DNA of 64,000 bases, from the NCBI RefSeq assembly GCF_022846255.1, contig NZ_AP025682.1; one strand, written 5' to 3'. Origin of the DNA: Escherichia coli. GTDB taxonomy: Bacteria > Pseudomonadota > Gammaproteobacteria > Enterobacterales > Enterobacteriaceae. Below the pieces are notes generated by a model. That model saw only the letters and a program-made list of their open reading frames with translations, had not been told where the DNA came from and made no database searches. Of this stretch, positions 8,148 through 11,661 are shown in pieces. Position numbers and translations under genes: made by a program. Each line of letters begins with the position of its first letter. Position 1 is the stretch's first letter.

Positions 8148-8176
8148 ATCATCCTCCACAAAATGATAAAGGCTTT

Positions 8177-8195
8177 AATAATGATTATCATTTAT
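8177..8195. promoter_or_regulatory. Fur box in the divergent entC / fepB promoter region
   Basis: aataatgattatcatttat closely matches the Fur consensus GATAATGATAATCATTATC; sits between divergent iron-regulated operons. Confidence 0.75.
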
Positions 8196-8335
8196 ATTTT
8201 CGGTCGCTAACCTAAAAGCAAACGCGCACTATGTCAACTCTTGAGGTAACGCAATCTGCAACTCGGGGTTGCATCTGGTTGTGGTTACAATGAAAATGAG
8301 AAGCATTAACTTCATTAATAACAGGAAGCTGATTT

Positions 8336-9295: not shown

Positions 9296-10546
9296 TTAAC
9301 TGTCGGACGCTGTCACCTGCGGCGGCGTCTGGCGAAAACGTCGCAACTCCACCAGCACCAGCAACAACAACACGCCGATAATCAACAAACCAAAACCGCT
9401 CGCGCTTGCGGAAGCAACCGGTGTCATCATCGCGCCCAAACCGCCCAGCAGCGCCGCGCCTATGGCATCGCCCGTCACGTTTTGTGCCGTCCACAAACCG
9501 TTAATCCGCCCTAACATCGCTTCCGGGGTTTGCGTTTGCAGCATTGTATATTGCAGCAACGAACTAACCGCGCTCAGCCAGCCGAACAGCGCCAGACAAA
9601 CCACGCCTAAAATCCACATCGGCATCAGGCCAAACAAACCAATGGCGAGGAACGATCCCAGCGTGGAAAGCAGCATCAATAACCCTGGTCGCGCGCTATG
9701 TGCCAGCTTACCGCTGGTTAACGCGCCAATAGCCGCGCCGAGCGGGATCGCCGCATAGAGAAAACCAATCTGTGCCGCCGACATCTGCCAGTTGTCAGCC
9801 AGCGCCGGATACAGGACCCGCACCGCGCTCGCCATCGTCAATAAACCACCCAGCAACGCAATCCCTCCCACCAGCGGGCTGGCGAGTAGAAAACGAAATC
9901 CTGCCAGTAATGATTTCAACGGATGCTCACGCGGCTGCGGCGGTGGTGGCAACGCCGGAAGGCTTAACAACGGTAGCAAGGTAATAAACGTGCCCGCCGC
10001 CGCCAGCCCGTAGTTCCAGGCTACGCCGCCGGTCGCCAGCAGTAAACCGCCAATCATGGGCGAAATCACCGATCCCAGACGCACAGTCAACATGGTGATC
10101 GCCCCGGCCTGCATTAGGTTTTCACGCCCTACCAGTGCAGGTGTCGCCGCCAGTAGCGCCGTAACGCCAAGTGATGCGAAAAAACCATCCCATAAACCAA
10201 GTAAATAGATTGCCAGCAAAGACGGCTCCGGCAGCAGCGCATTCAGGCACAGTCCAATGAAGCCAATGCCACAGGTGCCACGCGCCAGCAAAATCACTTT
10301 TTTACGCTCATAGCGATCCGCCAGCACACCGCCGACCATCAGGCCAACAAACATCGCGCCGCCGGTCAGCGTCACCGAAAGCCCCACCTGCCAGGTAGAA
10401 TGCGTCATCATCTGGATCTGCACCGGCACCGCGACGCCGAGCAAACCCAGAGAAACAATTGAGATAAAACGAGCGAGGAATACTGCGCGAAACGCCGGGT
10501 GCGTTTTCAACAGGCTGAGGTTAAGCAGCCAGGATTGTTTATTCAT
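9296..10546 (-). CDS. entS: Enterobactin exporter (MFS)
   Basis: 416 aa MFS transporter, [34 protein letters not shown]...; divergent from fepD. Confidence 0.93.
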
Positions 10547-10619
10547 TACAATGCCTTGCCATCAAATATTTTAAATACCTATTCTTAGGCTGCACATGCT
10601 AACATATCCAAATAAGATC

Positions 10620-10644
10620 GATAACGATAATTAATTTCATTATC
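10620..10644. promoter_or_regulatory. Fur box in the divergent entS / fepD promoter region
   Basis: gataacgataattaatttcattatc is a Fur-consensus-like AT-rich hexamer array; it abuts the first ATG of the fepD track ORF. Confidence 0.7.
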
Positions 10645-10656
10645 ATGGAAGTTCGT

Positions 10657-11661
10657 ATGTCTGGTTCTGTTGCCGTGACACGCGCCATTGCCGTGCCCGG
10701 ATTGCTGTTATTACTGATTATCGCGACGGCATTAAGCCTACTCATTGGGGCAAAATCACTCCCCGCTTCCGTAGTGCTGGAGGCGCTCTCCGGCACCTGC
10801 CAGAGCGCCGACTGCACCATCGTGCTCGACGCACGACTGCCGCGCACCCTTGCCGGTTTACTGGCAGGCGGTGCGCTTGGCCTTGCCGGGGCGTTAATGC
10901 AAACCCTCACCCGAAACCCGCTTGCCGATCCTGGTTTGCTTGGCGTGAACGCCGGTGCCAGTTTTGCCATTGTGCTGGGCGCGGCGCTGTTTGGTTACTC
11001 TTCCGCGCAGGAACAACTGGCGATGGCCTTCGCCGGGGCGCTGGTGGCCTCGTTGATTGTTGCCTTTACCGGCAGCCAGGGCGGCGGGCAGTTAAGTCCG
11101 GTGCGTTTAACCCTGGCAGGCGTGGCGCTGGCGGCGGTGCTGGAAGGGCTGACCAGCGGCATCGCCCTGCTTAATCCCGACGTCTACGATCAACTGCGTT
11201 TCTGGCAAGCCGGTTCGCTGGATATTCGCAATCTACATACCTTAAAAGTGGTGCTGATCCCGGTGCTTACCGCTGGAGCAACTGCGCTATTACTGAGCCG
11301 CGCGCTGAACAGTTTAAGCCTTGGCAGTGACACCGCGACGGCACTGGGCAGTCGCGTAGCGCGCACACAGTTGATTGGTCTGCTGGCAATTACCGTGCTT
11401 TGTGGTAGTGCGACGGCGGTAGTTGGCCCGATTGCCTTTATTGGCCTGATGATGCCGCACATGGCGCGCTGGCTGGTAGGTGCCGATCATCGCTGGTCGC
11501 TGCCCGTCACGCTACTCGCTACCCCTGCCCTGCTGCTGTTTGCCGATATCATTGGGCGGGTGATTGTTCCCGGCGAACTGCGCGTTTCTGTAGTCAGTGC
11601 CTTTATTGGCGCACCAGTGCTGATCTTCCTCGTACGACGTAAAACGCGAGGTGGCGCATGA
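10657..11661 (+). CDS. fepD: Ferric-enterobactin ABC transporter permease
   Basis: MSGSVAVTRAIAVPGLLLLLIIATALSLLIGAKSLPASVV...; FecCD-family permease; start chosen 4 codons inside the track ORF because the upstream ATG lies within the Fur box; gives 334 aa. Confidence 0.9.
   Translation: MSGSVAVTRAIAVPGLLLLLIIATALSLLIGAKSLPASVVLEALSGTCQSADCTIVLDARLPRTLAGLLAGGALGLAGALMQTLTRNPLADPGLLGVNAGASFAIVLGAALFGYSSAQEQLAMAFAGALVASLIVAFTGSQGGGQLSPVRLTLAGVALAAVLEGLTSGIALLNPDVYDQLRFWQAGSLDIRNLHTLKVVLIPVLTAGATALLLSRALNSLSLGSDTATALGSRVARTQLIGLLAITVLCGSATAVVGPIAFIGLMMPHMARWLVGADHRWSLPVTLLATPALLLFADIIGRVIVPGELRVSVVSAFIGAPVLIFLVRRKTRGGA

Follow-up and report, generated by a model that had tools for sequence, protein, structure and literature searches.

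The closest described system to the locus studied here is the fepDGC-entS (fepD-ybdA) region of Escherichia coli K-12, a bidirectional Fur-regulated promoter-operator (Christoffersen 2001; Lavrrar 2002; Chen 2007). The DNA that we analyzed, a 64-kb stretch of E. coli sequence referred to below as the window, contains this same locus. The published Fur cluster of fepD-entS has its centre at distances of 25 bp (fepD) and 86 bp (entS) from the starts of the two genes, it sits between the promoters and the translational starts, and a fepD-entS oligonucleotide was gel-shifted by Fur (Chen 2007, PMC2189734). The footprint of Lavrrar 2002, cited in the same work as 621394-621462 (Chen 2007, PMC2189734), corresponds to window positions 10607-10675. 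Literature lists of the direct Fur regulon in both CFT073 and MG1655 include fepDGC and entS. The K-12 MG1655 annotation places fepD (b0590) at 621185-622189, which is 1005 nt and encodes 334 aa, and begins entS at 622300.

The corresponding part of the window, 10547-10656, is a divergent control region of 110 bp that serves the E. coli enterobactin genes, with entS transcribed leftward and fepDGC rightward. The entS-fepD intergenic length, taken from K-12 and RefSeq annotation and by script, was 110 bp in K-12 and in the window alike. The ORF list gives fepB upstream, entS on the minus strand, the fepD ORF and then fepG, and the fepB / entS / fepD-fepG-fepC context that marks FepD was found in this list together with the RefSeq and K-12 annotation. 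Two in-frame ATGs stand near the beginning of the fepD ORF, at 10645-10647 and at 10657-10659, the latter followed by TCT GGT TCT GTT (MSGSV). The ORF at 10645-11661 encodes 338 aa from the first ATG and 334 aa from 10657, with no stop between the two. The coding features and candidate starts are as follows.

9296 to 10546, minus strand: entS (ybdA) ORF, 416 aa, start codon at 10544..10546 (ORF list; RefSeq and K-12 annotation).
10645 to 10647, plus strand: upstream in-frame ATG, probably not the main start (an ATG in 24/74 species; Shine-Dalgarno duplex of -0.3 kcal/mol).
10657 to 11661, plus strand: fepD coding sequence, 334 aa plus stop, with its supported start codon at 10657-10659 (conservation, annotation, NF007760, Pfam FecCD).

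A sequence-only reading of the window had remarked that a Fur-like sequence ends at 10644 and that the first in-frame ATG of fepD follows at 10645; both coordinates proved exact by script and by the ORF list. It had preferred the ATG at 10657, which yields the expected 334-aa product. A 401-nt query (window 10450-10850) was matched with 97-100% identity by 5416 of the 5426 complete E. coli genomes, and every match lay over fepD and entS; the 91 nt at 10600-10690 were 100% identical in 4799 of these 5416 genomes, K-12 derivatives included. In NZ_CP027103 (E. coli RM14723, locus L001 of our comparison), the control region was 100% identical to the window over 401 nt, and RefSeq starts fepD of that genome at the base equal to window 10657. 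RefSeq flags entS and fepG of NZ_CP027103 as frameshifted pseudogenes; both ORFs are intact in the window.

The protein is a clear member of its family. Against the NCBIfam equivalog profile NF007760, FepD scored 626.5 bits with a cut-off of 428, and residues 1-333 of the 334-aa form aligned to profile positions 1-333 of 335. When the 338-aa form was scored, profile position 1 fell on its residue 5, and the four additional residues left the score unchanged (626.4 vs 626.5 bits). Pfam FecCD (PF01032) matched residues 23-332 of the 338-aa form with an E-value of 3.9e-92. Among solved structures, FepD matched FhuB 7lb8, HmuU 4g1u and BtuC 1l7v; the search for a structure of FepD itself found only such homologues. 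Since FhuB, HmuU and BtuC are homologues only, no structure bears on the N-terminus of FepD.

The sequence GATAACGATAATTAATTTCATTATC was located by script at 10620-10644. To count as a Fur box, a sequence had to match the palindromic consensus GATAATGATAATCATTATC of 19 bp or hold at least three GATAAT-type hexamers, usually in overlapping sites 6 bp apart; two overlapping matches to the consensus at this offset were found. The match to GATAATGATAATCATTATC was 15/19 at 10620-10638 and 16/19 at 10626-10644, the best in the 64-kb window. Four sites of at least 15/19 were observed in the window vs a mean of 0.15 in 20 block shuffles; the match at 10620-10644 is thus far beyond chance. The other two sites of at least 15/19 lie in the fepB-entC control region (8177 and 8292). 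Upstream of fepB, Fur-box matches were noted at 8171-8201 (a cluster of three, 6 bp apart) and at 8292-8310, 15/19 each, and these presumably represent the fepB-entC bidirectional control region. Among the 23 genera and species that were aligned, GATAACGATAAT..ATCATTATC of the fepD-entS box was near-invariant and the flanking spacers varied. The cluster centre of Chen 2007 maps to window 10632, the middle of the 25-mer. The sequence at 10620-10644 is therefore the published fepDGC-entS Fur operator, with Fur binding itself taken from the literature.

The operator was then placed relative to the promoters, for which cappable-seq positions in PMC12825309 Table S2 were mapped to the window. Only positions and strands were used from that table, and the start sites are our own reading of it. 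The control elements are listed here from left to right.

10577 to 10582, plus strand: putative fepD-direction -35 ACCTAT, a poor match, assigned from its place 17 bp upstream of TAACAT.
10588, minus strand: entS-direction transcription start site (cappable-seq, PMC12825309 Table S2 mapped to the window).
10596 to 10605, both directions: shared -10 region, with TAACAT at 10600-10605 (plus strand) for fepD and TAGCAT at 10596-10601 (minus strand) for entS (PMC12825309 Table S2).
About 10612, plus strand: fepD transcription start site (cappable-seq, PMC12825309 Table S2 mapped to the window).
10619 to 10624, minus strand: entS -35 TTATCG, 17 bp from TAGCAT, overlapped by the first Fur hexamer and mutated in PMC12825309 Table S2.
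10620 to 10644, no strand assigned: Fur operator of two overlapping 19-bp Fur boxes 6 bp apart, 10620-10638 and 10626-10644 (consensus match, conservation, Chen 2007).
10647 to 10651, plus strand: Shine-Dalgarno element GGAAG, 5 nt before ATG 10657, with its GGA core at -10 (conservation, duplex energy).

The shared -10 is given as tgttagcat in PMC12825309 Table S2, which equals window 10596-10604, and ATGCTAACATA in this region was near-invariant across the 23 aligned genera and species. The ACCTAT hexamer was changed to TTGACA in an 'up' mutant (PMC12825309 Table S2). In that table, the 'entS up' mutant improves the -35 of the fepD-pointing promoter and the 'fepD down' mutant destroys the -35 of the entS-pointing promoter, so the two labels appear to be swapped relative to gene orientation, unless the extracted table text, from which the start sites also come, is corrupted. 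With the mapped positions, the entS and fepD start sites are about 23 bp apart. Taking the start sites from the literature, the Fur box overlaps the entS -35 (10619-10624) and spans +9 to +33 of the fepD transcript. A fepD start site at about 10612 means that the Fur box is transcribed and that both candidate AUGs are on the mRNA, preceded by leaders of 33 and 45 nt. Inside the Fur box, at 10618-10646 on the plus strand, there was a further sigma-70-like match (TCGATA, 17 bp, TATCAT). If it were used, transcription would begin near 10653, ATG 10645 would be excluded and ATG 10657 would be almost leaderless; we found no start-site evidence for this promoter.

The choice between the two ATGs was examined by computing how strongly positions -18 to -4 before each ATG pair with the 3' end of 16S rRNA. 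In the window the duplex energy was -3.9 kcal/mol for ATG 10657 vs -0.3 kcal/mol for ATG 10645, and the means across species were -5.3 kcal/mol for the downstream ATG vs -0.9 kcal/mol for the upstream one. A purine motif complementary to the anti-Shine-Dalgarno sequence, 5-10 nt upstream, was present for ATG 10657 in the form of GGAAG, a weak one. The scoring of both starts, which the sequence-only reading had recommended, thus favored 10657, but about 32% of all plus-strand ATGs in the window score as well as -3.9 kcal/mol. The E. coli Shine-Dalgarno match is weak, not distinctive by itself, and supportive only. That reading had also argued that a start at 10657 leaves room for a ribosome-binding site. 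GGAAG does serve 10657, but the argument from space does not hold, because the Fur box is DNA-level regulation within a transcribed leader and does not physically exclude a ribosome-binding site. The start-codon argument should rest instead on conservation and on the AU-rich sequence of the Fur box, which is without anti-Shine-Dalgarno complementarity (-0.3 kcal/mol). For ATG 10645 we found neither ribosome-binding determinants of its own nor the conservation of an alternative start, although it is in frame.

The 334-aa FepD was found on at least 1000 contigs in protein records vs 14 for the 338-aa form, which is annotated in UTI89 and APEC O1 (ABE06092.1 and ABJ00011.1) and in some HMP strains. 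Entries of 330 aa called 'iron-enterobactin ABC transporter permease' share a 90%-identity cluster with the 334- and 338-aa FepD. Their name and length are those expected for FepG, which may reflect a quirk in how the database clusters or names proteins.

Cross-species comparison carried most of the weight. A scan with one genome per species returned 80 loci, and the tallies below cover the window plus 73 non-Buttiauxella Enterobacteriaceae species (n = 74). All seven Buttiauxella loci were left out of the tallies; four of them (L067, L073, L074 and L076) have no ATG at the extrapolated position, which makes the alignment anchor unreliable in this genus. The Buttiauxella loci (L067, L073-L076, L078 and L080) have a different fepD N-terminal region and leader, with a longer spacer after the Fur box, and their fepD starts are possibly GTG or others.

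The downstream ATG, equal to window 10657, was present in 74/74 species. GGA at -9 to -12 was likewise found in all 74, at -10 in 54 of them. The codon at -12, where the upstream ATG would be, was much more variable: ATG in 24, AGG in 27, GGG in 11, CAG in 6 and others in 6. An in-frame stop at -6 was found in 10 species, and in several genera stops in frame or indels that break the frame separate the positions of the two ATGs. The spacer from the Fur box to the start was 12, 13, 14, 16, 17 or 18 nt long, and because these lengths are not all multiples of three, the stretch between the Fur box and the start evolves as non-coding sequence. A conserved start preceded by non-coding-like sequence was therefore found at ATG 10657. 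The genera that carry the ATG at -12 are Escherichia, Enterobacter, Lelliottia, Leclercia, Trabulsiella, Pluralibacter and relatives; those without it are Citrobacter, Salmonella, Klebsiella, Raoultella, Kluyvera, Kosakonia, Phytobacter and others. For Klebsiella and Raoultella we read ATG TCA GGG ATG TGA or TAA in the spacer, which puts an in-frame stop right before the fepD start. This four-codon mini-ORF (ATG TCA GGG ATG, then TGA/TAA) between the Fur box and fepD was seen at loci L008, L022, L023, L025-L027, L031 and L038; in Klebsiella/Raoultella it lies in the fepD frame, 18 nt ahead of the ATG, and 3 nt separate its end from the start codon. At three loci (L055, L061 and L065) no stop closes the fepD frame for hundreds of nt upstream; this open stretch runs antisense to entS and has ATG and TTG codons in frame, and a gene caller that chooses the longest ORF would make fepD far too long.

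Aligning the 23 genera and species showed little or no variation in the -10 region, the Fur box or the downstream ATG. The first ATG has its T within the (T/G)GGA Shine-Dalgarno element, at a position polymorphic for T and G, and the TG of the first ATG overlaps this element of ATG 10657. A 5-6-nt gap in alignment columns 89-94 is common to Escherichia, Citrobacter and Salmonella vs Klebsiella, Enterobacter, Kluyvera and others, and in the window it falls at the 10644/10645 junction. The Fur box reaches the first ATG in E. coli because this gap puts it against the Shine-Dalgarno element.

Mainly from this cross-species comparison, the view that fepD starts at ATG 10657 and encodes 334 aa is supported, with the choice made by the ribosome being what we infer. 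The preference of the sequence-only reading for MSGSV and 334 aa was borne out by the 74/74 conservation, by K-12 and RefSeq annotation and by NF007760. That ATG 10645 is the true and only start, giving 338 aa, is so improbable as to be close to untenable. In its favor, the longest ORF begins with this ATG, and GenBank ABE06092.1 and ABJ00011.1 (UTI89 and APEC O1) use it as the start. However, with an ATG there in just 24/74 species, Citrobacter, Salmonella, Klebsiella, Kluyvera and others must use the downstream ATG; in addition, the position lacks a Shine-Dalgarno element, the family profile begins at residue 5, K-12/RefSeq curation gives 334 aa and the contig counts are at least 1000 vs 14.

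Another possible explanation is that AUG 10645 and AUG 10657 are both used in E. coli and the other lineages with ATGGA, so that a minor 338-aa FepD extended by MEVR is made beside the 334-aa form. We regard this as unlikely. AUG 10645 is in frame with no stop before 10657, it is on the mRNA (start site about 10612) and it follows an AU-rich stretch. AU-rich sequence upstream of an AUG can support initiation that is independent of a Shine-Dalgarno element. The upstream AUG also appears to be fixed in E. coli: comparison of the complete genomes found the polymorphism T10646G on an otherwise identical 91-nt background in no E. coli genome. It occurs in 24/74 species and is in frame in several clades. 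However, it is without anti-Shine-Dalgarno complementarity (-0.3 kcal/mol), and a 30S subunit paired to GGAAG would be expected to place 10657, not 10645, in the P site. Most predicted folds have AUG 10645 mostly base-paired (probability of being unpaired 0.03-0.37), and the folds vary with the 3' end; when the 3' end of the folded leader was changed, the unpaired probabilities of the Shine-Dalgarno element and of both AUGs did not agree between folds, and they did not clearly tell the two AUGs apart. The upstream AUG is absent or blocked by a stop in 50/74 species, which means that no conserved function can depend on AUG 10645. Literature searches for direct fepD initiation data (start codon, ribosome profiling) found nothing relevant, and the TRAINSPOTTER N-terminomics supplements have no fepD entry.

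The conservation around the first AUG invites a further reading, in which the conserved UCA(G/U)GGA(U/A)GU would be a Shine-Dalgarno element and also a candidate site for an RNA-binding regulator, e.g. CsrA, that occludes the fepD ribosome-binding site. This we find very doubtful. The conservation extends past GGA, and the consensus of 40 distinct leaders was AAUCAGGGAUGUU. Over window 10643-10655, about -14 to -2 from the fepD ATG, the consensus of loci L002-L081 was AAUCA(G/U)GGA(U/A/C)GUU. The leader consensus resembles the CsrA SELEX consensus, RUACARGGAUGU. On the other hand, 39 of the 40 leader sequences have a single GGA, and CsrA usually bridges two sites. Published data do show fepDGC expression rising in a csrA mutant (Potts 2017, PMC5694010). 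However, the same study gives no CLIP-seq peak on fepD and an unchanged translation efficiency in the mutant (+0.05 log2, with RNA at +1.38), and its authors considered the csrA effect on fepDGC to be probably indirect, perhaps through Fur (Potts 2017, PMC5694010). The idea of a CsrA site is unsupported by these CLIP-seq and translation-efficiency data. It is quite improbable, more broadly, either that the T before GGA in Escherichia and in Enterobacter/Lelliottia/Leclercia/Trabulsiella creates an AUG inside the Shine-Dalgarno element that yields a minor MEVR-extended FepD, or that UCA(G/U)GGA(U/A)GU is a post-transcriptional operator, e.g. for CsrA. If such an operator were real, there would be a second, translational control layer on Fur-repressed fepDGC.

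The explanation that we consider very probable is that of a divergent Fur-controlled region in which the Fur box is transcribed and FepD is translated from AUG 10657. Two back-to-back sigma-70 promoters would have a common -10 (10596-10605), with starts at about 10588 for entS and about 10612 for fepD. Fe2+-Fur on the 25-bp double Fur box at 10620-10644 would cover the entS -35 as well as +9 to +33 of the fepD transcript, and in plentiful iron both promoters would thereby be repressed. The Fur box would be transcribed into the 45-nt fepD leader, and the weak Shine-Dalgarno element GGAAG (10647-10651) would direct translation from AUG 10657 to give the 334-aa FepD permease. AUG 10645 would then be a by-product, its A being the conserved base after the Fur box and its UG coming from the (U/G)GGA Shine-Dalgarno element. 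The 5-6-nt gap in Escherichia, Citrobacter and Salmonella would have set the Fur box directly against that element.

The importance of this is small beyond annotation hygiene, since the 338-aa form is limited to a few older records and to longest-ORF gene calls. The sequence-only reading had called it a small annotation point, and rightly so, as K-12, RefSeq and NCBIfam already use the 334-aa start as their standard. The locus does offer a clean example of how an ATG can arise inside a Shine-Dalgarno element, and of why starts are poorly assigned by simply taking the first ATG in an ORF; it also confirms how compactly a classical divergent promoter under Fur control is laid out.

Compared with K-12 fepDGC-entS, the window comes from another E. 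coli strain, and its FepD protein is identical to the UTI89 and APEC O1 records. The 110-bp length and the Fur cluster centre of Chen 2007 are the same, and there was no substantive difference. The whole layout agrees with the published fepDGC-entS architecture and with current reference annotation and is, therefore, already known. At the protein level, FepD shares PF01032 with the FecCD-family permeases of type II ABC importers (FhuB, BtuC, HmuU, FecC/D). Within the same gene cluster, the fepB-entC and fepA-fes regions are, like fepD-entS, divergent promoters regulated by iron that contain overlapping 19-bp Fur boxes. The fepD-entS region differs from these two in having a single operator cluster downstream of the fepD start site that abuts the ribosome-binding site, in the position between promoter and start codon described by Chen 2007 (PMC2189734).
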